The notes below the pieces were generated by a model that saw nothing but the letters and a program-made list of their open reading frames with translations, did no database searches and had not been told where the DNA came from. Both the position numbers and the translations under genes were made by a program. Below are positions 11,354-53,039 of a stretch of DNA of 64,000 bases, in pieces. Each line of letters opens with the position of its first letter. The first letter of the stretch is position 1. The DNA comes from a virus (taxonomy: Duplodnaviria; Caudoviricetes): IMG/VR virus record IMGVR_UViG_3300010429_001264. The stretch is one strand, 5' to 3'.

Positions 11354-12067
11354 TTATTTTTTTATCAATTGATAGACTCCTCTCATATTTAAAATTGTTT
11401 CTGTTATAAAATATTGTTTTAAACTATCCACCATTCCTCCTCCTTGCTTATATATAACGACTTGGTTATCAATTATTCTACTTAGATTTTTAGCAAAATA
11501 TTCTCTGTCTTGTTTGTCTATAAGAGGCTCAAACATATATATCACGTCATAATCTTTTATGTCGTTTTTATGCATTTCTAATATATTTCTTTTCTTAATG
11601 TCTAATTTCATGCATCTTCCTATATTTGTTAGTCTTTCGTTTATTTCATAACCAGAACATATGTAGTTTTTAGGCATCATTTTAAAAATCAAACCTGGGC
11701 CAGATCCAAGATCTAAAAATTTTATTTTTTTATTGTTTTCGAATTTCGATGATACAAATTTTATAATATTTTCTAGTTTATCTGGCTCAGTTAGCCAATA
11801 ATTATATCTCATATCATCACTTGTCTGAATAAGTCTTCTAAGCCCACGAATGGATTTCGACATACAATATAGATTGCTGTTTAAAACATCAAACATCCAA
11901 TCATATTCGTTGTATCTTTTTCTGGAATTAAAAATATATTTAATATTTATGGAAAAATAACAACGAGCTAGATTTATTAAAAAATTTATATAATAAGATT
12001 TTGTGCTATATAATTTTAAGATTTTATGACAATCTTTTATAGTGTCGAACTCCCATCTTATGTTCAT
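11354..12067 (-). CDS. Class I SAM-dependent methyltransferase
   Basis: FLDLGSGPG, GYEIN, YDVIYMFEP. Confidence 0.75.
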   Translation of the reverse strand: MNIRWEFDTIKDCHKILKLYSTKSYYINFLINLARCYFSINIKYIFNSRKRYNEYDWMFDVLNSNLYCMSKSIRGLRRLIQTSDDMRYNYWLTEPDKLENIIKFVSSKFENNKKIKFLDLGSGPGLIFKMMPKNYICSGYEINERLTNIGRCMKLDIKKRNILEMHKNDIKDYDVIYMFEPLIDKQDREYFAKNLSRIIDNQVVIYKQGGGMVDSLKQYFITETILNMRGVYQLIKK

Positions 12068-12378
12068 ACGTCCAGAATATTTATTCTTGGTTTTTTAATA
12101 TCAAAATTATTAACACCATTGTTCCTCACCAAATGGATCTGATGATTGTCTCTACTTATCACCCTTGATGTTTTCGAATATGATTTTTTTTCTTCTTCAA
12201 ATGGATCATCACTCTTCTTATCTTTATCTTTTTTTTCTTTACCGACCATCTTTTCTCTTTCTTTCTTGGCTTTCTCTTCTTGTTTTTTATATTCTTCTTC
12301 GGGTGTTAACTCGCGTTTTTTGAACAAGTCTTTAAGTCCTTCATTTGTAAATTCATTGAATTTTTTTAAATTTTTCAT
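12064..12378 (-). CDS. Charged hypothetical protein with CTS-like start
   Basis: MKNLKKFNEFTNE; DDPFEEE. Confidence 0.7.
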   Translation of the reverse strand: MKNLKKFNEFTNEGLKDLFKKRELTPEEEYKKQEEKAKKEREKMVGKEKKDKDKKSDDPFEEEKKSYSKTSRVISRDNHQIHLVRNNGVNNFDIKKPRINILDV

Positions 12379-12430
12379 AATTTTTTTTTATTTTTTTAAT
12401 ATATATAATTAAAAAAAAGTCATTTTTTTA

Positions 12431-13156
12431 ATGTACAAGCAATTTGAGAAATTTAATCTTTGGAAAAAAATTAAGGATAAGGTTGTTTATATCGAGCCCA
12501 ATAGTATTTATGATTTTTCAAAGGATTATATAGACAAAATAGCCGAAAAGGTATCAAAGGAATTGGGGTTTAGATATTCTCATTTTGTGGGAATGGGCGA
12601 TTATGGCATAGCTTATGATGTTGGTAATGAAAAAGTATTAAAAATAACAACAGATAAAAACGAATATGAAATATCAAATTATCTGAGAACAAAAAACACA
12701 ACATATCTTATTGATATATATGATGTTAGAAAAATTGGAGAAACTGGATTGTATTCAATAGTTATGGACAAAGTTGAAAAATTGACATCGTTTGAAAAAA
12801 TATTTTTGGATAAATTAAATGGTTTTTTATACAATAAAAAAATGAATATACTAGATATTTTCTCCACATATGATAATGAAGATAAAATGAGATACTTTTT
12901 GGTGAATGAAATAAGTGATAAACCCGAGCCGTCTTATTCAGCTAATTTTAGTGTTTTATTAAAATTAATATCAGATCTTGTTTATATAAAATTAGAAGCA
13001 AGAAAATATAAAATAATTTGTTGTGACTTGCGAGCAGCCAATGTTGGATGGAAAAATAATGACAGTATAGGAAAACATCTCGTTTTCTTTGATATAGGAA
13101 GTTATGGAGAAAAGAATTTTAAAACTACAAAGAAAAGATTAAAAGATATATCTTAA
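12431..13156 (+). CDS. Protein kinase-like fold protein
   Basis: GMGDYGIAY Gly loop, VLK, helix-C Glu, DLRAAN catalytic loop, DIG. Confidence 0.8.
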   Translation: MYKQFEKFNLWKKIKDKVVYIEPNSIYDFSKDYIDKIAEKVSKELGFRYSHFVGMGDYGIAYDVGNEKVLKITTDKNEYEISNYLRTKNTTYLIDIYDVRKIGETGLYSIVMDKVEKLTSFEKIFLDKLNGFLYNKKMNILDIFSTYDNEDKMRYFLVNEISDKPEPSYSANFSVLLKLISDLVYIKLEARKYKIICCDLRAANVGWKNNDSIGKHLVFFDIGSYGEKNFKTTKKRLKDIS

Positions 13157-13173
13157 ATATCAAATTTTATCAT

Positions 13174-13263
13174 TGGCGGAGGGCAATGTTGCCGCCACAT
13201 ATCCTTTTAAGGGGACCGACAATTTAGCAGATTGCGACTATCAACTGGATAGTTTTACCCTCC
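13174..13263 (-). tRNA. tRNA-Ser(GCT)
   Basis: GGAGGGT/GCCCTCC-GCCA; GCAAT-CTGCTAA-ATTGT; long variable arm; atypical T-loop GGCGGCA. Confidence 0.85.
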
Positions 13264-13385
13264 ATTAATTTTTATTTTAATTTCTGATTTCTTTTTATAA
13301 TTGTAATTTTTTTTACATTTTTTACAACAACCCATTTTATTTATTAATACTATTATGTGAACTTTTTCCATATTTACAATAATCG

Positions 13386-13472
13386 AGGAAGATTACGGTA
13401 CCGACCCGTATACGACTTTCATCGTATCTACTGATTTCCAATCAGAGGAAGCGCCTCACTTCTCAATCTTCC
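13386..13472 (-). tRNA. tRNA-Ser(GGA)
   Basis: GGAAGAT/ATCTTCC; CTGA-TTGGAAA-TCAG; long variable arm; T-loop GTCGGTA. Confidence 0.85.
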
Positions 13473-13592
13473 ACATTAACAAGTGCCCGCCGGCACTTGG
13501 ATGGTTGCTGACATTCTTTTGTTTTACTTAACTAATAGTGCGCGTTACACCTAGTTTTTCATCCTCAAAGCGGGATACCATCATCACTGTAG

Positions 13593-13663
13593 CAGGCCTA
13601 CCCCGGATCGAACAGGGATCTAGAGATTTGGAGTCACTCGTGTTACCATTACACTATAGACCT
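13593..13663 (-). tRNA. tRNA-Trp(CCA)
   Basis: AGGTCTA/TAGGCCT-G; loop CTCCAAA; T-loop TTCGATC. Confidence 0.9.
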
Positions 13664-13666
13664 ATT

Positions 13667-13756
13667 TGGCGGCGAATATAGGAGTCTAACCTATACATCG
13701 GATTCTCACCGACTTCACAATTTTCGAAATTGCTAACCACGACAATGGGATTCGCC
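13667..13756 (-). tRNA. tRNA-Ser(CGA)
   Basis: GGCGAAT/ATTCGCC-GCCA; GCAAT-TTCGAAA-ATTGT; long variable arm; reduced D-arm. Confidence 0.8.
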
Positions 13757-13762
13757 AATTTC

Positions 13763-13825
13763 GGAATACTTTTTGGATTCGACAATTTTCAGTTGTAAAT
13801 TTTTTCTTTTTGCTGTTTGTATTCC
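13763..13825 (-). ncRNA. ACAGCAA-motif small RNA, copy 3 (inside tRNA cluster)
   Basis: GGAATAC-AAACAGCAA...ACAA-CTGAAAA-TTGT...CCAAAAA-GTATTCC; same plan as 20562-20617 and 20631-20689. Confidence 0.65.
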
Positions 13826-13830
13826 TCTCG

Positions 13831-13920
13831 CGGTAAAATGAGGTCCCGACCCCCAATCGTTTTCTAGACGATCCTGCTGTTTTCAAGACAGAGCTGACAA
13901 CCCCGGTCAGTTAATTTACC
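13831..13920 (-). tRNA. tRNA-Ser(TGA)
   Basis: GGTAAA/TTTACC-G; CTGT-CTTGAAA-ACAG; long variable arm; T-loop GTCGGGA. Confidence 0.85.
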
Positions 13921-13949
13921 AATATTTAAAAAGAAAGATTTTTTTCATG

Positions 13950-14022
13950 TGGGCCCGGAGGTATTCGAAACCTCATAGCATTGATTAAGAGTCAATTTCA
14001 TTACCAATTATGATACGAACCC
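13950..14022 (-). tRNA. tRNA-Lys(CTT)
   Basis: GGGTTCG/CGGGCCC-A; ATTGA-CTCTTAA-TCAAT; T-loop TTCGAAT. Confidence 0.9.
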
Positions 14023-14028
14023 ATTTTG

Positions 14029-14101
14029 TGACTCCGAGGGACCACGATTCCCTAACCCCTTGATTAAAAGTCAAGTGCTCTACCAATTGAGCTACGAAGT
14101 C
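14029..14101 (-). tRNA. tRNA-Lys(TTT) copy 1
   Basis: GACTTCG/CGGAGTC-A; CTTGA-CTTTTAA-TCAAG; T-loop ATCGTGG. Confidence 0.9.
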
Positions 14102-14108
14102 ATTTTTG

Positions 14109-14190
14109 CTGGTATAGTAAGATTCGAACTTACAGCCACGCTCACGCATTACCGGGTTGGAACCGGCTGGTCACGCCAATGAGTATACCA
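14109..14190 (-). tRNA. Atypical tRNA with CCA (Trp) anticodon and long variable arm
   Basis: TGGTATA/TATACCA-G; GCCGG-TTCCAAC-CCGGT; variable hairpin ATGC-GTGA-GCGT; GTAAG-TTCGAAT-CTTAC. Confidence 0.75.
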
Positions 14191-14200
14191 ATTTTTTTTG

Positions 14201-14272
14201 TGACCCCACTCAGATTCGAACTGAGACAACTACTTTAAAAGAGTAGGATTCTACCATTGAAATTATGAAGTC
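14201..14272 (-). tRNA. tRNA-Lys(TTT) copy 2
   Basis: GACTTCA/TGGGGTC-A; CTACT-CTTTTAA-AGTAG; T-loop TTCGAAT. Confidence 0.9.
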
Positions 14273-14304
14273 ATTTTTTTTTGTGGGTTCTTTCAGTCTC
14301 TTTG

Positions 14305-14377
14305 TGGGTCTCTTTGGTTACGCTCCAAACTCTTCAGTTCTTCAAACTGACGCTTTCACTAGATTAGCTTGAGATCC
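14305..14377 (-). tRNA. tRNA-Phe(GAA)
   Basis: GGATCTC/GAGACCC-A; TCAGT-TTGAAGA-ACTGA; T-loop AGCGTAA. Confidence 0.85.
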
Positions 14378-14380
14378 TTT

Positions 14381-14454
14381 TGGGAGTTTAATCAGAATCG
14401 AACTGATAACTTATCGGCCACAACGATAAATTTTTCCATTAAACTATAAACTCC
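14381..14454 (-). tRNA. tRNA-His(GTG)
   Basis: GGAGTTTA/TAAACTCC extended acceptor (G-1); TATCG-TTGTGGC-CGATA; T-loop TTCGATT. Confidence 0.9.
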
Positions 14455-14466
14455 ATATAAAATTTA

Positions 14467-14551
14467 CGGGGAAGTTTGGAATTGAACCAAAAATATATTG
14501 CATATTCATCAAAAAACAGAATACCATCTCACCTAAGAGATAATCTTCCCT
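14467..14551 (-). ncRNA. tRNA-like element / pseudo-tRNA with 11-nt anticodon loop
   Basis: GGGAAG/CTTCCC acceptor, ATCTC/GAGAT D-stem, TTTGG-TTCAATT-CCAAA T-arm, GTATTC-TGTTTTTTGAT-GAATAT. Confidence 0.55.
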
Positions 14552-14591
14552 ATAATATTCAGCCAACCATTAACAAAATAAATCTCATAAA

Positions 14592-14717
14592 TTACCAATT
14601 CATTTTTCTGCCCATTACCCATCCTTTTTTAATGTCTAAATTATTTGTGATATGACAACCTATATATTTTTTATTATTTATCTTATTGGTTATTTCATAA
14701 ATTATATAATATTTCAT
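14592..14717 (-). pseudogene. Internally deleted GIY-YIG (Seg-like) homing endonuclease
   Basis: MKYYIIYEITNKINNKKYIGCHITNNLD fused directly to IKKGWVMGRKMNW*. Confidence 0.75.
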
Positions 14718-15210
14718 ATTTCTTTTTTTATTCTATATATAAAATAAAAAAGTTCGATTTTGGTTCAATATGGATTACAGAAAAAAAAAACAGAAAGTTA
14801 TTAATTTCAACAGCGAGCATCCTCCTTTACGTCGAGCCTACCAATTTCGCCACTAAAGAAAACATATCATCGTTTAAATATTCATTACAACATGTCAAAG
14901 AACAAAAATATTGAACAAAAATAAGTAACAGCTCTCCTCTTCTTTCATAGATTTTATCATATAGAATCCTCGGTGTTTGTATCGAGTTAGTCTATACCCC
15001 AAACTTATTTGTTTGGATGCCAGTATCATTCAATTTTATTTGACTTCTTTCCGGCCCCCGTCTCTTTACGTACACGGTTACTGCCTTTATCACAGTTTTT
15101 CATCTGTGATCGGTACTTTACGTCGAATTTTTTAGGTCGTCCTATATCGGGATCGAACCAATAATAGGGTTTAAAAAGTTTAACAATTTCCCAACTATTT
15201 TTATTCAACA

Positions 15211-15223
15211 TTTCAAAGAACTT
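15211..15223 (-). promoter_or_regulatory. boxA-like antitermination site
   Basis: AAGTTCTTTGAAA; related GTTCTTTGA copies at about 14893, 51367, 51585 and 52332, all ahead of non-coding RNA. Confidence 0.7.
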
Positions 15224-15225
15224 AC

Positions 15226-15262
15226 AAAAAAAAATCCGAACTTTTTTTAGCTCGGATTTTTT
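15226..15262 (-). terminator. Intrinsic terminator (attenuator) upstream of tRNA operon
   Basis: AAAAAATCCGAGCT-A6-AGTTCGGATTTTTT, ending in a T9 run. Confidence 0.85.
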
Positions 15263-15293
15263 CTGTGAAGGAGGTATATATTAATATGATCTC

Positions 15294-15377
15294 TTAAAAG
15301 ACACAGACATCCCGAGCCGTTGGTTTTGATGACCAAAAACTGGAAAAATGTTTACTATGTTTCTTAAAAGTTCTCAT
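15294..15377 (-). CDS. Attenuator leader peptide MRTFKKHSKHFSSFWSSKPTARDVCVF
   Basis: 27 codons, below the ORF-track cutoff; 15 consecutive F/K/H/S/W codons; 3' part complementary to the terminator 5' arm. Confidence 0.85.
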   Translation of the reverse strand: MRTFKKHSKHFSSFWSSKPTARDVCVF

Positions 15378-15385
15378 TGTTTTAT

Positions 15386-15420
15386 TATATATTATGGAAA
15401 AAATATCATTTTTTTCCATT
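15386..15420 (-). promoter_or_regulatory. Conserved upstream motif TGGAAAAAAAYGAY-N13/14-TATATA
   Basis: Near-identical copies at about 20711-20745 and 52597-52630. Confidence 0.6.
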
Positions 15421-15484
15421 TTTGTTTCATTTATACGACAAAATTATAAAAAAGTTTGAAAATAAAAAAATAAATTTAATTTTT

Positions 15485-15697
15485 TTATATTTTTTTATCA
15501 TCAATTTTATTCAATTTTGCTGTTTTATACGTGATTTTAGTTCTTGCTGTTCCATAAAATCCCAATTTCTGATTAAATTGACATGTCAATAATCCTTGAA
15601 TTGTTTTCGATGTCGTTCCGCCGAATCCTACCCCAACTCCTTGAGAAAAACAAGTGCTAGATAATGCTAAGAATAAAAGAATGAATATTTTTTTCAT
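15485..15697 (-). CDS. Small secreted protein, possibly truncated
   Basis: Bacteroidota-like signal peptide MKKIFILLFLALSSTCFSQ. Confidence 0.55.
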   Translation of the reverse strand: MKKIFILLFLALSSTCFSQGVGVGFGGTTSKTIQGLLTCQFNQKLGFYGTARTKITYKTAKLNKIDDKKI

Positions 15698-15793
15698 TTT
15701 TTTTTGTTTTAAGTGACAAAATTATAAAAAAGTTTTAAAATAAAAAAATATTTTTGTTCTTTTAACTCTATATATTATTCCTTTATTTTCTAG

Positions 15794-16048
15794 TTATATT
15801 TTTTCTATTATAATTCTATACATATGATCTCCTCGTTCATAACCCGTCCGATCTTTTATCTTGTCACCGAGATTTACACAAAAAAGTAATGATTTCTTAT
15901 TTTTCCCAACCATGACCGGTGAACATTTAGATAAATTCTCACTTTTATATATTTCATGCAAACTTTCTGTGAGATCACAATGTTCTTCACTAAATTCAAT
16001 GTTTTCTTTTTTAAATGTTGACTCATCTATATATTCAAATTCTTTCAT
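15794..16048 (-). CDS. Hypothetical protein
   Basis: ORF in minus-strand operon. Confidence 0.6.
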   Translation of the reverse strand: MKEFEYIDESTFKKENIEFSEEHCDLTESLHEIYKSENLSKCSPVMVGKNKKSLLFCVNLGDKIKDRTGYERGDHMYRIIIEKI

Positions 16049-16068
16049 AATCTATATTGTTATTTTTT

Positions 16069-16554
16069 TTACCAATTCTTATATGGGTTTTTAACTAGAT
16101 TGCAGTTATAATATTTATCTATTCCTGTCACTTCTTCTGTAATAAATTTTGGTTTATGAAAAGACTCATTTTCATCATTCAATTCTATTTCAGCAATGAT
16201 AAGCCCATCATTATCGCCATCAAAAACATCTATTTCCCACACATGTTTTAAATCGCTTGTGCTGACATATCTATATCTAGTTTTAGATATTTTTTCTTGA
16301 CAAAACTCTAATAACTCTATAGCATCTTTTATTGGTATCTTATATTCATATTCCTTTCTAGATATACTACCTTTACCTTTTATTGTAATATATCCAAAGA
16401 GATCAGTTACCCTAATTCTCACTACTTTTTCTGGATCATCGAATAAATATCCTTGTTGTATCCTAAAAGAATGGCAATTCTCTTTTATTTTTAAAAAAAG
16501 ATTGTCATCAACAAGAAATTTTCTTTCTATTTCAATATTGCTGTTAGATTTCAT
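16069..16554 (-). CDS. CYTH domain protein (triphosphate tunnel metalloenzyme)
   Basis: EIERKFLV, QGY, VRIR, ITIKG, EYEY, KTRY, WEIDVF, AEIEL. Confidence 0.9.
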   Translation of the reverse strand: MKSNSNIEIERKFLVDDNLFLKIKENCHSFRIQQGYLFDDPEKVVRIRVTDLFGYITIKGKGSISRKEYEYKIPIKDAIELLEFCQEKISKTRYRYVSTSDLKHVWEIDVFDGDNDGLIIAEIELNDENESFHKPKFITEEVTGIDKYYNCNLVKNPYKNW

Positions 16555-16610
16555 ATTAATAATTATAATTACAAATTTAAAAAAAGTTTTACAATTAAAA
16601 AAATTAATAA

Positions 16611-17060
16611 TTAATCAGAAGTGTCATATTGATATAGTTTATTCTTCTTTATTATCGCCGAGACTCTACTTGCCCAGGCGCTAGACTGAGAATATCCACT
16701 TCTCTGTATCGCTTTTACCCATAAATTATAATCTTTATTACCCTTTAATGAATAGTAGAACTTTTTATTAGAAATAAATTCACAAAAATGATTAAAAGAT
16801 GCTGTGTCTGACACATATCCTCTATAATATTTACCTTTCTTTATTCCAAAATAATTATTTTTGTTCTTGCTCAAATAACTAGTTCCGTATCCAGTTTCAT
16901 GCGCTGATATACCAAGAATAATACTTGCTGGTATATCTGTTTTATTCATTAACTCTATTGACAAGTCTTTGTATTTTTCTATGTAGTTTTGTGTAGATTT
17001 TTGAGCGAATAACGATAAAGATAGTAGTGCCATTAGCACTATTAAGATTATTTTCTTCAA
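16611..17060 (-). CDS. GH73 glucosaminidase with signal peptide
   Basis: IPASII..SAHETGYG...NNYFGIK...GYS; N-terminal signal peptide. Confidence 0.9.
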   Translation of the reverse strand: MKKIILIVLMALLSLSLFAQKSTQNYIEKYKDLSIELMNKTDIPASIILGISAHETGYGTSYLSKNKNNYFGIKKGKYYRGYVSDTASFNHFCEFISNKKFYYSLKGNKDYNLWVKAIQRSGYSQSSAWASRVSAIIKKNKLYQYDTSD

Positions 17061-19057: not shown

Positions 19058-20515
19058 CTATATTTCAACTGGTTCATATCTTTCAGAATTGATCGTCTTC
19101 AACATAATATCATAAGGAGTCTCCTTAGCTGGAGTTTCTACTTCACTACCAGATAATATCGATTTCAAAATACTTGGACTGAATCCAGAGATCAATCCAA
19201 CATTTTCGTCAAAAGCCGAAGCTGTCACATTGTCATTTTCTGCTCTAAGATTCCAGAATATAACTCTTGGTATCTTATATCCATAGGAAGCGTACTTGGA
19301 TTTTATCATTTCGAATCCAGTTTGAGAATAATTTCCCTTATTTGGATCGAACTGTAAGTCAGATAAAACCAATAAAGTAGTTGGCATTTCATTTTCAGAT
19401 AAATGATTTTCGACGGCCTTTCCTAACATTAAATCGAAAGCTGCTGTAAAGTCAGTAGTATTATTCCAAGGAGCCGATCCTATTTGTCTAATTCTTTCAG
19501 AAACACTGCCTTTCAAATACATCATTTTTGGTATGCTTGAGAAAGTGATGAAGGCGTCTTTAAATATACTTTCATTTTTTTCTGAAATATAAATAGCTAA
19601 TGACTGGGCAACCCTGCCTGGTAATCCACCATACCAACCCATTGATCCTGAAGTATCTACAACTGGCATCAATCTTTCTGTTGTGCCTTCCATATAATTT
19701 GGCAAACTATACCACTGAGCTTCAATTGCTTGAATATCAGCTTCATTTTTTGCTCTAACGAAAGCATCATATAATTGATATGGATAAATAGCAGAGGCAC
19801 ACATTTTAGAAACGCCACTTTTAACATTAAGTATGTAGTCGTTAAACCTGTTTTTATCGTTACGATAGAAAGCCTTGCGATATTTGTTCATAGCAACAGA
19901 AGGAACTTGATCGTATTTTATACCATCATATTCTTTTTTGCACATCAACTGCTCGACTGTATTTGAAAGCCCCACTATTAATTTGCGATAATCTTTTGGT
20001 GTTAATTTTAAAGATTTTCTAATCTTATTTGCTCTCCATCCCTTTCTATCTAGCCATTTGGCCAATAGGAATTTAGTTGAGTCTTCACCATACAACATTT
20101 TTTTTATGATATTTAAAATCTCAATATCAATTTCTGTGTTTGATCCATCATTCAATAGCTCGACCATATCATCCCAACGACCATACTCTGGTATAAGATG
20201 AATATTTTTCATTAAATATCCATTGTAATATTTTTCTAGATATTTTAAACAAACTCTAAAAAATCTTCTTTCACCTGCTCCTCCTCTAACATCTCTAACC
20301 CAAAACATGAGTTTTAAAGCCATTAAAGGATCTTCTGATAGTGCTTTTTGAAATAATTGCTCAATTTTTCCATCATCCCAATGACGGGCTGAGCCAGCCA
20401 TGAAAAACATATCCACACAAGAGTTTAAGCTTGTTGAATTTGTAACCATACCCTTTTCGGTGTATGAATCCTTTTGACGTGCCGCGTTGACAAGTCTTGA
20501 CATTGAAATAGCCAT
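19058..20515 (-). CDS. Ro60-like TROVE/vWA protein (DUF2828 family)
   Basis: RDVRGGAGERR, IPEYGRWDD, AKW, VPSVAM, VVDTSGSM (MIDAS), LSDLQFD, IFWNL, SGFSP. Confidence 0.85.
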   Translation of the reverse strand: MAISMSRLVNAARQKDSYTEKGMVTNSTSLNSCVDMFFMAGSARHWDDGKIEQLFQKALSEDPLMALKLMFWVRDVRGGAGERRFFRVCLKYLEKYYNGYLMKNIHLIPEYGRWDDMVELLNDGSNTEIDIEILNIIKKMLYGEDSTKFLLAKWLDRKGWRANKIRKSLKLTPKDYRKLIVGLSNTVEQLMCKKEYDGIKYDQVPSVAMNKYRKAFYRNDKNRFNDYILNVKSGVSKMCASAIYPYQLYDAFVRAKNEADIQAIEAQWYSLPNYMEGTTERLMPVVDTSGSMGWYGGLPGRVAQSLAIYISEKNESIFKDAFITFSSIPKMMYLKGSVSERIRQIGSAPWNNTTDFTAAFDLMLGKAVENHLSENEMPTTLLVLSDLQFDPNKGNYSQTGFEMIKSKYASYGYKIPRVIFWNLRAENDNVTASAFDENVGLISGFSPSILKSILSGSEVETPAKETPYDIMLKTINSERYEPVEI

Positions 20516-21991: not shown

Positions 21992-24616
21992 TTAAATCAA
22001 CCTATCTATTCTAAATAAAAGATCGCTCTGACTTATTGGTTTTGTTACATAATCATCACATCCCATATCATAAGCCTTGTTTTTTTGATCAGGCATAGCC
22101 AGTGCCGATTCAACTATTATTGGCAATCTTTCGTCAAATTCTTTTATTTCCTTTATTAATTTATATCCGCTTTTTCCAGGTAGTCCTATATCCAATAGAA
22201 CTAAATCAATTTTATTATTTTTTATAATGTCCATAACCTCATTACCGTTCCAACATTCTATTATATTTACATTGGTTTTAAATAAATGTTTAGCTATAAT
22301 ATAACGACTATCTTTATCATCTTCAACAACAAGTATTGTTTTACCTTTCAAATTCATTGATTTTTTATGAACCTTCTCTTTAACACTTTCAACATAATCA
22401 AATGTTTTAATTTCATATGGAGCATAAAAATAAAATTTGCTACCTTCTCCCAATTTTGATTCTAATTTTATATCATCAAATCCCAATAATTTTATTAAAG
22501 ACTTTGTTATAGAAAGTCCCAGACCTGCTCCTTTAAATTTATTTCCAGAACTATTTAACTGCCTAAATCTTTCAAAAATTATTTTCTGATTTTCTTCGGC
22601 TATACCAATTCCAGTGTCTTCGACAAATATCATAATCTTTTGTCTATCAATTATTTTATAACCAAATTTAACATACCCCTCTTTCGTGAATTTAATAGCG
22701 TTTCCGATTAGATTCATTAATATTTGACGTAAACGATATTTATCTGTATTAATAATAACATTTTTATTTATATCTTCTTCGATTATTATTTCTATCTTTT
22801 TGTCTTTTATTTGTTTGGAATAACTCAATCTCAACTCCTCTAATAATTTGTTGATTTCAAACTCTCTTTTTTCTATTTTCAAACTATTTGTATCGATTTT
22901 AGAAACATCTATAATATCATCGATCAAAGCCATTAAAAATTTTCCATTGTTTATGATAGTATTCACATAATCAGTTTTTTCTGATTTTGTTAGATTATTG
23001 TTTTTCAATAAATCAGAAAAACCTATTATAGCATTCATCGGAGTGCGGAGATCGTGACTCATATTGGCTAGGAATTCGAGTTTCATTTTATCTGATTCTT
23101 CAGCTTTTTCTTTAGCTTTTATGAGCTCTTCTTCAAAAACTTTTCTATCTGTTATATCTACACCAAAAGAAACTATTTTTTCAACTTCTTTGTTTTTCAC
23201 CACCAAATTGTTTCTCCAAACTAAAAATCTTCTTTGACCACTTTTTGTTACTATTTCATTTTCATGCTTTCTATCTTCATCTGTAAAATTGAGCTTCATT
23301 TTTGTCATAAATTGAAACATTTTAACTTTATCTTCTTGTGGTATAAGAAGACTGAACCAGTTTTCGCCAATAACCTCATCTCTTTTATATCCTGTAATTT
23401 TCTCGGCAGCTTCGTTAAAAAATAATATATTGCCATCTGGATCCAATTCGACAACAATAACATTAGCCATTTGTATAATGTTCTCCGCGTTTTCTTTAGA
23501 GTTTCTGAGTTCATTCTGCACATTGATTTCATCAGTAATATCTCTTATCATAATAATTACCTCATCTTCACCACTTTTAGTTGTTCTGGAATAAAAAAAT
23601 CTTTTTTCACCATTTTCCATTTTAATTGGATATTGATGCTCGTCTGTTATACCATTTCTTATAACACGCTCGATGGTTTCAATGGATTCTATTTTTACAT
23701 AATCATCTATTGGCAAAGAATACATATCCTTTCCTATATAATCTTTTAAATTTTCATTACTCAAATAATCATCCATACCTGGTTTGATATCCAGAATTAA
23801 AGCGTCTTCTCTAACGCGCATAACCATATACGGTATCGCATTCAATATAGCAATATAATTTTCAGTATTTTCCTTATTTTCAGTGATATCAACGATGAAT
23901 AGAATTAAATATTCACCTCCATCTAGTTTTATATAATCGCCCGAGAATTCACCATACCGAATTTCATTATATTTTGTTTTATATTTTAATGGTAAATTTT
24001 TAATAGTCCCATACACTTTTAATTCTTCCGCCAAAATCTTTCTATCTTCTATTGTCAACAACCCTAGATCTATAGATCTCCTACCTATTAATTCTTCTCG
24101 TTCATATCCAGACATTTGAACAAATCTTTCATTAACATCCAATAAAACTCCTGTATTTATTTCAGATATGGATATAGCATAAGCATTTGAATTGAAAATC
24201 TTTTTTATCTTCTCTTCATAATTAGTTATTATAGCATAATCCTTACAAAAGGCATACGCTATTTTTTTATTTTCTTTTATATATTTTCCAACATAAACCC
24301 TTGAAACAACTTTGATTTCTTTTCCGTCTTTCGACACCAGTGGTATCTCACAACTTTTCGTTTCGCCTTTAAATAATGAAACCAGTTTTTGTTTTAAAAT
24401 ATCATCAAATTTAGAATCCCGAATTTCAAATAAAGTCATATTTTTCATTTCTTCATTGGTATATCCGATTGTTTCTCTAGCCATGGAATTTGTTTTTAAT
24501 ATTTTTCCGTCTTCATCAAATATAAATATCATATCGTCGAGCGATTCAACGAAATCCTCCATCCTATAGCACTCAAAACTATCATTATAAGCACAACTAA
24601 AAGAATTTTTATCCAT
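21992..24616 (-). CDS. Cytoplasmic multi-PAS hybrid sensor histidine kinase / response regulator
   Basis: About four PAS domains; SHDLRTPMN H-box; NLIGNAIKFT, DTGIGI, GAGLGL; receiver VEDD...LLDI...KP. Confidence 0.95.
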   Translation of the reverse strand: MDKNSFSCAYNDSFECYRMEDFVESLDDMIFIFDEDGKILKTNSMARETIGYTNEEMKNMTLFEIRDSKFDDILKQKLVSLFKGETKSCEIPLVSKDGKEIKVVSRVYVGKYIKENKKIAYAFCKDYAIITNYEEKIKKIFNSNAYAISISEINTGVLLDVNERFVQMSGYEREELIGRRSIDLGLLTIEDRKILAEELKVYGTIKNLPLKYKTKYNEIRYGEFSGDYIKLDGGEYLILFIVDITENKENTENYIAILNAIPYMVMRVREDALILDIKPGMDDYLSNENLKDYIGKDMYSLPIDDYVKIESIETIERVIRNGITDEHQYPIKMENGEKRFFYSRTTKSGEDEVIIMIRDITDEINVQNELRNSKENAENIIQMANVIVVELDPDGNILFFNEAAEKITGYKRDEVIGENWFSLLIPQEDKVKMFQFMTKMKLNFTDEDRKHENEIVTKSGQRRFLVWRNNLVVKNKEVEKIVSFGVDITDRKVFEEELIKAKEKAEESDKMKLEFLANMSHDLRTPMNAIIGFSDLLKNNNLTKSEKTDYVNTIINNGKFLMALIDDIIDVSKIDTNSLKIEKREFEINKLLEELRLSYSKQIKDKKIEIIIEEDINKNVIINTDKYRLRQILMNLIGNAIKFTKEGYVKFGYKIIDRQKIMIFVEDTGIGIAEENQKIIFERFRQLNSSGNKFKGAGLGLSITKSLIKLLGFDDIKLESKLGEGSKFYFYAPYEIKTFDYVESVKEKVHKKSMNLKGKTILVVEDDKDSRYIIAKHLFKTNVNIIECWNGNEVMDIIKNNKIDLVLLDIGLPGKSGYKLIKEIKEFDERLPIIVESALAMPDQKNKAYDMGCDDYVTKPISQSDLLFRIDRLI

Positions 24617-50809: not shown

Positions 50810-50953
50810 TGAACTACTACTACACTAAAGATGTAGTAGTTTCTACGCCACAAGCACAATGTAACCATTCACTTTGAGTGACGCTGGGTTGGTTCCTCAA
50901 CCCTATTTTTTTTATATTCATAGCGGCATTTATATTTCTATCGTGTTCTAGCC
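50810..50953 (-). mobile_element. tnpB: IS200/IS605-type tnpB 3' remnant with right end / omegaRNA scaffold
   Basis: Frame LEHDRNINAAMNIKKIGL...ETTTSLV*; terminal hairpin AACTACTACATCTTTAGTGTAGTAGTAGTTCA. Confidence 0.8.
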
Positions 50954-50954
50954 G

Positions 50955-51580
50955 AACTACTGTGCCGTCTTTCAAGATGGTTTCCCACCTATCAAACTAG
51001 TGATCACCCTTGATGTGCTAGATCTCGGATTTATTCACCTACCCCTTATTAATCAACGAAATAATGTGTTGGATGTTGTCTGAAGCCGGTGTCCCCACCC
51101 TTATTTTCTCCCTTCGGTTCCCCCTTTCGAGGCCGTTAAAGAAGATTATCCTTTCCAAAGGTTCAAACATCACATTTTCTCGTCTGTTTCCGCTATAAGC
51201 GAAACCATCGGTTAGCCGATGAAAACGAGGCTTGCTTAGATGGACCCGTTTCAGGGCGATAGAGTTGTGGATACCTCTACCTTTCGACACATTACTGTGT
51301 CATATCCACGTTGCTCCCCCGTAGGGGGCAACCAGTTCCAAGCGACTGTTAATATCTTTACAAAATATCAAAGAACTTATTGGCACTCAGTGAAAGTTTC
51401 GCTCTTCCATTATCACTCTTGTGACTAACCTCTACTAGTGAGGACTGAGTATATTTTGAATGCTTTTTAGCTTGCGGTGGCTGACACATTTTTCAGTGAC
51501 AATTTAAATGCGAAGGAAACCTAGCCTCACTTTCCTCACATACCATCGCGGCCGACTAGACCTGAACCTTTAACTAAAAA
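50955..51580 (-). ncRNA. Large structured non-coding RNA B (unidentified)
   Basis: GC-rich relative to genome; many tetraloop hairpins; TAnnTTTG (51626) and boxA (51585, 51367) upstream; boundaries approximate. Confidence 0.7.
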
Positions 51581-51689
51581 GACATTCAAAGAACTTAATT
51601 TCATTTTTTTTTTCAAATAACGATGCAAAAGTATAAATTATATCTCAAATAAAAAAATAGTTTTAAAAATTTTTTTTATTTTTTTTTTA

Positions 51690-52320
51690 GCACCCTCTTG
51701 TCTTACTACTGGACGGTACTTCGGGACGAACCTTTCTAGCCACGTAGCTTTCATAGTAAGAGTAAGGTCTAGCTGAGCGCTCATTCGTGTTGTAGAGATT
51801 TACTAATTCATAGATTTTGTCAGTATTTAGCCTTCCCTCTCTGAGGCAATTTTATTCCTTGCTCAAGGGAACAACACGTATAGGATTACTCCGAGTTTTT
51901 GTATCCGTTATTCACGTAGTGGATGCAATTACATACCTAATCACATAGGTCTTTTGCCACATTGGGACGTATAACCGATTCTTTGCACACACCCCATTAG
52001 TCATATTTCATTATCACAATGAACGTTCGTTACCTACAGACGTCAGATGTGCCTACAAAATTAAACCACAACCCCTTATGGTTTACTCATCCTGTCAATT
52101 CAGGATTTATCATCTTTTTGTGAATATGCATTATGCAACATGATTATAGTGCGGTGCAAGCCCACTCTCTATATTCACAAAGGATCAATGTTTAGCCTAA
52201 GTTGTGTAAGTTAGCCAACGAATTGTTAAAAACAATGGGACTTCTGTTGTATCATACATCTTTCATAGCGGCTCCCCAAGCTCAAAATGTCATTATTAAC
52301 AAACAACAACTTTAAATTTT
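51690..52320 (-). ncRNA. Large structured non-coding RNA A (GOLLD/ROOL-class candidate)
   Basis: No ORF; long stems TTTGTGAATAT/ATATTCACAAA, CGTGTTGT/ACAACACG, TCTTACTA/TAGTAAGA; downstream of tRNA and boxA. Confidence 0.65.
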
Positions 52321-52345
52321 CATTTCAAAAAATCAAAGAACTTTT

Positions 52346-52413
52346 TCAAGGCTCTGAGGTTCACGCAGCGAATACCCTCGACTTAGCCCTACGCTGCGTT
52401 ACGGGCACCTTGA
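52346..52413 (-). ncRNA. Small stem-loop RNA element
   Basis: TCAAGG/CCTTGA closing stem enclosing ACGCAGCG/CGCTGCGT. Confidence 0.5.
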
Positions 52414-52418
52414 TTTTG

Positions 52419-52492
52419 TAGCGGATAGTGGCTCTGCCCCACTGATCTTGAGGTTATGAATCTCACGAGATGACTGACTTCTCCAATCCGCG
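52419..52492 (-). tRNA. tRNA-Met(CAT), initiator-like
   Basis: CGCGGAT/ATCCGCT-A with unpaired C1; loop TTCATAA; T-loop GGCAGAG. Confidence 0.85.
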
Positions 52493-53039
52493 ATATATTT
52501 TCAATTTCATCAATGAACGGCGACGATTAAAACGATACAAAAGTACTACAAGTTTTTTAAAAAAAAAATATTTTAGAAATTTCTTAGCTGGATTAATATA
52601 TATTAACTAAAAAATGTCATTTTTTTCCATTTTGGATTATTATTTATCTATGAAGTTTAAAAAAGTTTATTTTTTTTTCAATCAATTTAAACAAGTCTTC
52701 ACCATAACAATTTGTTGAATCTGTTATATACATATTTTTTTATATCTTTTGATATGTTTTAATTTGTTTTATTTTTATCAATCCAATCCAATTTCACTAG
52801 AAACATACACAGTTTCTAACATATCATTTAATTCAGATATAACTGATATCACCAGGTAGAAATTCCACCACTTCCGCCATCAGGTTTCGGGTCATTATCT
52901 ATATCGTCATCATTAGGAGAAGGATACTCACCTGTTTGGTCATCATCAGTTAAAGCAGCTGCTATTAAAGCAGATATTCCGAGTAACTCTAAAAACATAA
53001 TAACTCCTTTCTTTTTATTATTATATATTAAATTATATT

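Follow-up and report, generated by a model that had tools for sequence, protein, structure and literature searches.

The window analysed here is the whole 64-kb stretch of the virus record IMGVR_UViG_3300010429_001264 (Caudoviricetes), and its minus strand contains an operon of tRNA genes headed by a short leader open reading frame (ORF) and an intrinsic transcriptional terminator. We consider it likely, with a probability of about 0.7, that this leader region is a working ribosome-mediated attenuator, which couples transcription of the tRNA operon to the speed of decoding at the cognate codons. The proposal is supported by four independent computations, based on a run of codons in the leader ORF, on the alternative structures of its transcript, on the position of the switch boundary in a model of the translating ribosome, and on the co-variation of leaders and tRNA genes in other phages. 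We further infer that ribosomes translate the leader, that the host couples transcription with translation, and that read-through of the terminator depends on the supply of tRNAs.

The leader ORF (15377–15294, minus strand) comprises 27 codons followed by a TAA stop, and the deduced peptide begins with MRTFKKH. Codons 4 to 18 (15368–15324) specify exclusively Phe, Lys, His, Ser and Trp, and a count of run lengths in the six frames showed that this run of 15 codons is the longest of its kind in the window, the runner-up having 9. These five amino acids account for 27.9 % of the codons over the six frames of the window and, with this background, 4.6e-4 runs of at least 15 codons would be expected by chance in its whole length; the run is situated immediately ahead of the only tRNA array of the window. 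The control codons used (TTT, AAG, AAA, CAT, AGT, TCC, TCA and TGG) are decoded by eight of the nine anticodon species of the array, Ser-CGA alone being left unsampled. An initial annotation of this DNA, made from the sequence alone, had described the same ORF and translation, a block of codons 4–18 restricted to the five amino acids of the array, and the coverage of every anticodon type but Ser-CGA, all of which we could reproduce. A longer form of 41 codons, starting from an in-frame ATG at 15419, was considered and rejected, because this ATG sits in a repeated, promoter-like motif; among the copies of the motif elsewhere, one has TTG in place of this ATG, and another reaches a stop codon after seven codons. 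The ATG at 15377 was therefore taken as the likelier start codon.

The array itself, transcribed from the same strand, was recovered in several steps. ARAGORN with default settings identified five genes, also detected with Rfam, for tRNA-His (GTG; 14453–14382), two tRNA-Lys (TTT; 14272–14200 and 14101–14028), tRNA-Lys (CTT; 14022–13949) and tRNA-Trp (CCA; 13663–13592), to which Rfam added tRNA-Phe (GAA; 14377–14305; 38.1 bits), seen as well by ARAGORN with relaxed settings. The relaxed searches further yielded a tRNA with a long variable arm and anticodon CCA (14190–14108), tRNA-Ser (TGA; 13920–13830; option -ps80) and tRNA-Ser (GGA; 13472–13385; option -ps90), the latter two also by their fold, and the genes for tRNA-Ser (CGA; 13756–13667) and tRNA-Ser (GCT; 13263–13174; with an unusual T arm), both with an encoded CCA end, were read by hand and by folding. 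Non-canonical D and T arms are a feature of the four tRNA-Ser genes (13174–13920) and of several further genes, and it is because of these unusual arms that default ARAGORN and Rfam miss many of the tRNAs of the array. All eleven tRNAs of the initial annotation were therefore retrieved; no anticodon outside Ser, Lys, Trp, Phe and His was found in the array, and neither ARAGORN nor Rfam detected further tRNAs in the rest of the window. Besides these eleven, a twelfth, tRNA-like gene (14550–14469) has an 11-nt, U-rich anticodon loop on a cloverleaf whose acceptor, D and T arms are normal, and matches the tRNA-Sec family of Rfam with a sub-threshold score of 21.3 bits; it might be a variant resembling tRNA-Lys (UUU) or a decoy. 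The long-variable-arm tRNA is also peculiar, in that it combines a body of the Ser/Leu/Tyr type with a Trp anticodon, in the same array as the normal tRNA-Trp gene (13592–13663); if it were charged by seryl-tRNA synthetase, UGG would be read as Ser.

The leader transcript can adopt the alternative structures that characterize attenuators of the trp and his type. The RNA from 15430 to 15215 has a minimum free energy of −55.7 kcal/mol, with z = −6.2 in comparison with dinucleotide shuffles. Folding identified an anti-antiterminator hairpin, 1:2, formed between the 5′ and 3′ halves of the ORF (15377–15286; −25.5 kcal/mol), and an intrinsic terminator, 3:4 (15262–15226), followed by a tract of nine U (15233–15226), with a 7-bp core of −11.4 kcal/mol that reaches −17.2 kcal/mol when the A/U extensions are included. 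Region 2 (15318–15301), which corresponds to codons 20–26, is the 5′ strand of an antiterminator whose other strand, region 3 (15267–15250; CACAGA, a run of A and AUCCGAGC), is shared with the 5′ arm of the terminator, so that 2:3 and 3:4 are mutually exclusive. As a hairpin, helix 2:3 amounts to −16.9 kcal/mol, versus −11.4 kcal/mol for the terminator core. The 2:3 duplex has an energy of −20.9 kcal/mol, versus −8.4 ± 2.1 kcal/mol for 1000 dinucleotide shuffles of the upstream 151 nt, none of which was as good. The terminator, the pairing of leader codons 21–26 with its 5′ side, and the trp/his-type geometry had all been proposed in the initial annotation, and in fact every one of its sequence-level predictions that could be computed held. 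A search of Rfam revealed no cis-regulatory family for the leader, with only tRNA reaching the gathering threshold anywhere in the window, and no match to T-box riboswitches at E ≤ 1 within 12000–17000. The sub-threshold matches to Thr_leader (RF00506; 25.2 bits vs. a gathering threshold of 55) and STnc240 cover mostly the terminator hairpin.

The position of the ribosome would determine which of these structures is formed. Folding of the leader with and without a ribosome footprint had been suggested in the initial annotation, and we modeled it by forcing the footprint to be single-stranded. Because the equilibrium fold of the complete terminator cannot tell ribosome positions apart, the transcript was ended after region 3, with region 4 still unmade, and the model should be read as a thermodynamic proxy only. 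Without a ribosome, region 3 was free (probability of being paired, 0.13). It was sequestered by region 2 when the A site was at any of codons 1–17 (0.93–0.98), and free again when the A site was at codons 18–27 (0.09–0.12). This switch between read-through and termination stayed at codons 16–18 for footprints extending 6, 9 or 12 nt past the A-site codon and with both candidate 5′ ends of the transcript, and it coincides with the end of the run of control codons.

The correspondence between leader and tRNA genes is not limited to the window. When the region was compared by blastn with 50,697 phage records, all matches were at the level of tRNAs, and the sole notable one led to LR756502.1, an uncultured phage of 642 kb with 50 Rfam tRNA matches arranged in blocks sorted by amino acid. 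Between 372930 and 423369, this genome contains at least six such blocks, each preceded by a short ORF and a strong intrinsic terminator. Block A (Phe, His, Phe, Trp and three Lys) follows a leader (372930–373016) that starts with MRTINKH and is rich in Lys, His, Phe and Trp, resembling the leader of the window. The leader at 375420–375494 includes the sequence SSRSRSS and precedes tRNAs for Arg, Ser, Ser and Arg; that at 388948–389040 is rich in Ile, Glu, Gly, Tyr and Ala and precedes a Glu/Tyr/Ile/Gly/Ala block; that at 401158–401262 is composed of Asn, Leu, Thr and Val, ahead of an Asn/Leu/Val/Ile/Thr block; that at 421958–422065 includes DQDQPD, ahead of a Pro/Asp block; and that at 422937–422990, which has seven Gln codons in a row, precedes four tRNA-Gln genes. 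So that leaders were not chosen by eye, all ORFs of 10–60 codons situated up to 450 nt upstream of a block were scored against the amino-acid set of each block, the array of the window being counted among them; of the 5040 permutations, the true assignment of leaders to blocks ranked best. Additionally, for five of the six LR756502.1 leaders, the footprint model placed the fall in sequestration of the terminator arm directly past the control codons. Two Met-CAT tRNAs of this phage (at 388838 and 581651) are outside any leader, and there are homing-endonuclease-like ORFs in the gaps within its blocks.

We also searched IMG/VR with a degenerate DNA pattern for the first seven codons of the leaders of the window and of block A, which retrieved 87 stretches. 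Most of these encode an unrelated protein of 42 residues, starting with MRTLKKHSEHH, that is conserved and common in IMG/VR contigs and has no tRNA genes nearby. The exceptions came from three groups of contigs (L021/L067/L085, L046/L103/L107 and L074/L100/L092), in which a leader starting with MRTINKH precedes a terminator and, behind it, an array of tRNA genes. The leader of L021 consists of Lys, His, Phe, Trp, Asn and Ser codons, and its array of tRNAs for Lys, His, Phe, Trp and Asn; the array of L046 comprises tRNAs for Phe, His, Phe, Trp and four Lys. The diverged leader of L074 lists all 12 amino acids (Gln, Val, Phe, His, Ser, Arg, Ile, Lys, Cys, Trp, Asn and Tyr) of the next 14 tRNAs, the last three of which were located only after they had been predicted from the leader. 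Additional blocks on contigs of these three types have their own matched leaders and terminators. The co-variation of leader and array in related phages, which the initial annotation had put forward as a test, is thus present both in LR756502.1 and in IMG/VR contigs. It extends to the secondary structure: the terminator stems of ten leaders differ in sequence, and yet the complementarity of each ORF to the 5′ arm of its own terminator was beaten in only 10 of 20,000 random pairings, so that the antiterminator co-varies structurally as well. Bacteroides phage crAss001, considered as a cultured candidate and used as a negative control, has an unsorted tRNA cluster that lacks matched leaders. Neither the exact leader pattern in IMG/VR nor a tblastn search with the 27-residue leader produced any match, and a search in IMG/VR for the neighboring CYTH, kinase-like and SbcC-like genes gave none or one distant locus.

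The sequences upstream of the leader contain several candidate promoter elements. A −7 box of the type found in Bacteroidota, TAATTTTG (15446–15439, minus strand), matching the pattern TAnnTTTG, is situated 62 nt 5′ of the leader ATG and is a putative promoter; boxes of the same type occur ca. 55 nt 5′ of the leaders in LR756502.1 and in the IMG/VR contigs. Together with the similarity of the neighboring CYTH gene, closest (50–58 % identity) to genes from Mucilaginibacter, Adhaeribacter, Chitinophagaceae and Flavobacterium, the type of promoter points to a host in the Bacteroidota. Nearer to the ORF there is an upstream motif consisting of ATGGAAAAAAATGAYATTTTTT, a spacer and TATATA (15419–15384), and an AU-rich ATATATAA box lies 8 nt ahead of the leader ATG, with ATATATAA-type boxes also found 5′ of the leaders of LR756502.1. 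A 22-nt element from this motif has identical copies at 15419–15398 and 52630–52609 and a diverged one at ca. 20745–20711, and a pattern for the whole motif (AAAAYGAY, a run of T, spacer and TATATA) matches four sites in the window, all in the minus strand (15419–15384, 20745–20711, 52630–52597 and 12426). Three of the four copies precede RNA loci, and the shared element may be a phage-specific promoter or operator.

The exact 16-mer GTTCTTTGAMATGTTG is present both 4 nt past the U tract of the terminator (site 1, 15221–15206) and farther downstream (site 2, 14903–14888), in agreement with the boxA that the initial annotation had placed after the terminator. The motif, which we take to resemble the boxA of bacterial rrn operons, with binding of NusB/NusE only putative, shows four matches with up to two mismatches, versus 0.26 expected, and is repeated at loci containing only RNA genes. 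Single boxA-like sites also occur after the C1 terminator of LR756502.1 and in L074. A pattern scan found no promoter box between the terminator and site 1, and therefore transcripts with site 1 must have passed the terminator. Further boxA-like sites (GTTCTTTGA...) are situated in the minus strand at 52341–52326, 51594–51579 and 51376–51361, within an island of 1.7 kb (ca. 50940–52560) devoid of protein genes. This island contains an initiator-like tRNA (CAT, ca. 52490–52420, read by eye), which is not preceded by a leader ORF, and a long, GC-richer RNA without a match in Rfam.

On the basis of these features, we propose the following course of events. Transcription would start 5′ of 15377, from the host-type promoter at 15446–15439 and/or the TATATAAT box at 15391–15384, and a ribosome would translate the 27-codon leader while the RNA polymerase approaches the terminator. 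With ample charged tRNAs for Phe, Lys, His, Ser and Trp, the ribosome would enter codons 18–27 and hide region 2, so that 3:4 would form and transcription would stop at the U tract. Scarcity of any of the eight sampled isoacceptors would stall it within codons 4–17, with region 1 covered and region 2 free; helix 2:3 would then form before region 4 is made, and the polymerase would pass into the boxA-like sites and the tRNA genes. If no ribosome loads, hairpin 1:2 would keep the terminator active, similarly to superattenuation in the trp operon. Lastly, the newly made tRNAs would quicken decoding of the leader, closing a negative feedback loop. Cleavage of host tRNAs by defense nucleases is a possible trigger, and the demand of an AT-rich phage transcriptome or a phage-induced turnover of tRNAs would fit equally well. 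More broadly, and with somewhat less assurance than for the attenuator itself, we think it probable that large Bacteroidota phages organize their tRNA genes in amino-acid-specific operons, each gated by its own "roster" leader that samples the isoacceptors encoded behind it, with the ribosome as the sensor of a viral tRNA homeostat. Within the DNA analysed, the phage of the window would retain a single module, for Phe, Lys, His, Ser and Trp, which may reveal those host tRNAs that run short or are destroyed in the course of infection.

Several observations weigh against a functional attenuator. Equilibrium folding with the full terminator and the U tract favors the terminator at every ribosome position, which leaves only a kinetic route to antitermination; the trp operon shares this property. 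Moreover, a ribosome on the stop codon re-exposes the first seven bases of region 2, which in the model of the truncated transcript could then pair with region 3 (probability of 0.85–0.9), and transcription-translation coupling has not, as far as we know, been shown for Bacteroidota. As for close relatives, the region is present in six other public contigs (seven copies) that are 100 % identical, with no variation within the lineage, and the contigs harboring protein relatives with 45–65 % identity, in a set of 5.8 billion proteins, are of insufficient length or have no array in the syntenic position, so that they provide no direct orthologue of the locus. Finally, the distance from the terminator to the first tRNA-like gene is ca. 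670 nt, and this stretch is poorly structured and contains candidate internal promoters (TAnnTTTG boxes at 15007, 14923 and 14910, and a T-run/TATATA at 14751–14735) as well as a homing-endonuclease remnant. The remnant, of the GIY-YIG type (41 codons, 14717–14592, minus strand), was recognized by its motif, read by eye, and by a match to the Pfam family SegE_GIY-YIG that is below the cut-off (E = 0.007). Near it there are pieces of tRNA-like debris, consisting of a T arm with a 3′ acceptor strand and of a D-arm-like piece (15135–15195 and 14800–14860, minus strand), which suggests past damage by homing endonucleases within the operon. A large non-coding RNA was also considered for two intervals, of 300 nt and 340 nt, lying between the boxA-like sites and the tRNA genes, and was rejected, as neither is significantly structured (z = −1.4 and +0.95, respectively).

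The long interval preceding the tRNAs is the basis for an alternative in which the attenuator is real and the tRNAs are nevertheless transcribed mainly from internal promoters, near 14910 or 14735, the switch serving to trim read-through from upstream or to control the 5′ non-coding stretch. The candidate boxes do lie before the tRNAs, and the homing-endonuclease remnant has its own AT-rich upstream region; however, TAnnTTTG occurs by chance about once per 1.1 kb in the minus strand, and the 14910 box overlaps boxA-like site 2, which a transcript starting there would forfeit. Additionally, in the relatives the leader and its terminator are only 60–160 nt from the first tRNA, leaving no room for another promoter, and therefore the design serves to gate the tRNA genes. 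We thus regard this alternative as unlikely. The alternative structures do not by themselves prove the involvement of a ribosome, and the choice between antiterminator and terminator could instead be made by a protein, or by tRNAs pairing with the codon run in the manner of a T-box. This is improbable, in view of the fact that in all examples the codon run shares its reading frame with a start ATG and a stop codon and that no T-box or other cis-regulatory family reached the threshold; besides, we know of no precedent for a run of at least 15 different codons acting as a direct platform for tRNA binding. It could also be argued that the ORF is an unrelated product of chance and that the hairpin is an ordinary terminator, constitutive or leaky, of the upstream gene (15697–15485). 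Short ORFs are indeed frequent in AT-rich DNA, where 27 stop-free codons are expected in ca. 10 % of cases per frame as estimated from base composition, and the terminator is symmetrical and could act on either strand. Nevertheless, the codon run, the complementarity of the antiterminator, the boundary at the end of the run and the co-variation in other phages are each improbable by chance, which makes this explanation very improbable.

Elsewhere in the window, the minus strand also codes for a hybrid sensor kinase of 874 residues (21992–24616), with PAS domains, HisKA, HATPase and a receiver, here found in a phage genome, and for a DUF2828/DUF7788 protein similar to TROVE/Ro60 and with a vWA domain (19058–20515). 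Phage crAss001 likewise encodes a TROVE protein (Gp96), adjoining an Rfam tRNA match at 96453–96596.

If the leader functions as proposed, phages would gauge the speed of decoding codon by codon and respond by making the matching tRNAs, which would explain the sorting of tRNA genes by amino acid in LR756502.1 and in the giant phages from IMG/VR that we examined. It would also imply a tight coupling of transcription and translation in Bacteroidota, and would provide a handle on the purpose of phage tRNAs, be it support of codon usage or replacement of degraded or cleaved host tRNAs. Leaders of this kind are a label, readable from the sequence, of the tRNAs that share one regulatory unit and, as compact sensors with multiple inputs, they could be reused in synthetic biology.

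Attenuation by leader peptides is a textbook mechanism that, to our knowledge, has been described for operons of amino-acid biosynthesis and of a few synthetases, but neither for tRNA genes nor in viruses; a full-text search of the literature likewise found no paper on leader-peptide attenuation of tRNA genes, either in phages or in cells. The closest parallels are the enterobacterial attenuators of ilvGMEDA (Leu/Val/Ile), thrL (Thr/Ile), trpL, hisL and pheL, with which the leader of the window shares a short, putatively translated ORF with control codons, hairpins 1:2, 2:3 and 3:4, a terminator with a U tract and a putative selection of the fold by the position of the ribosome. As in ilvGMEDA and thrL, more than one amino acid would be sensed, although the leader of the window samples five amino acids and eight isoacceptors, and that of the related contig L074 as many as twelve amino acids. 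Unlike in enterobacteria, the cargo consists of tRNA genes instead of biosynthetic enzymes, the system belongs to a probable Bacteroidota phage, and boxA-like sites are situated past the terminator; the score with Thr_leader, well under its gathering threshold, does not support membership in that family by sequence. The pheM leader of the Escherichia coli pheST operon, which controls phenylalanyl-tRNA synthetase by attenuation, is similar in that it reads the supply of charged tRNA and governs a component of decoding rather than the synthesis of an amino acid, but its target is a synthetase, it responds to a single amino acid, and it belongs to a cellular gene. T-box riboswitches, from Firmicutes and Actinobacteria, also report the status of tRNAs through a choice between terminator and antiterminator and have tRNA-related targets, although each does so by direct binding of one uncharged tRNA, at its specifier codon and T-box bulge, and no ribosome is involved. 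The tRNA arrays of phages have been proposed to aid codon usage or to replace host tRNAs cut by anticodon nucleases, as with T4 and PrrC, T5 and the PARIS or retron effectors, and mycobacteriophages. The array described here is similarly borne by a phage and includes three tRNA-Lys genes but, whereas those reports concern the function of the tRNAs, its distinctive feature would be a codon-matched sensor of their transcription.

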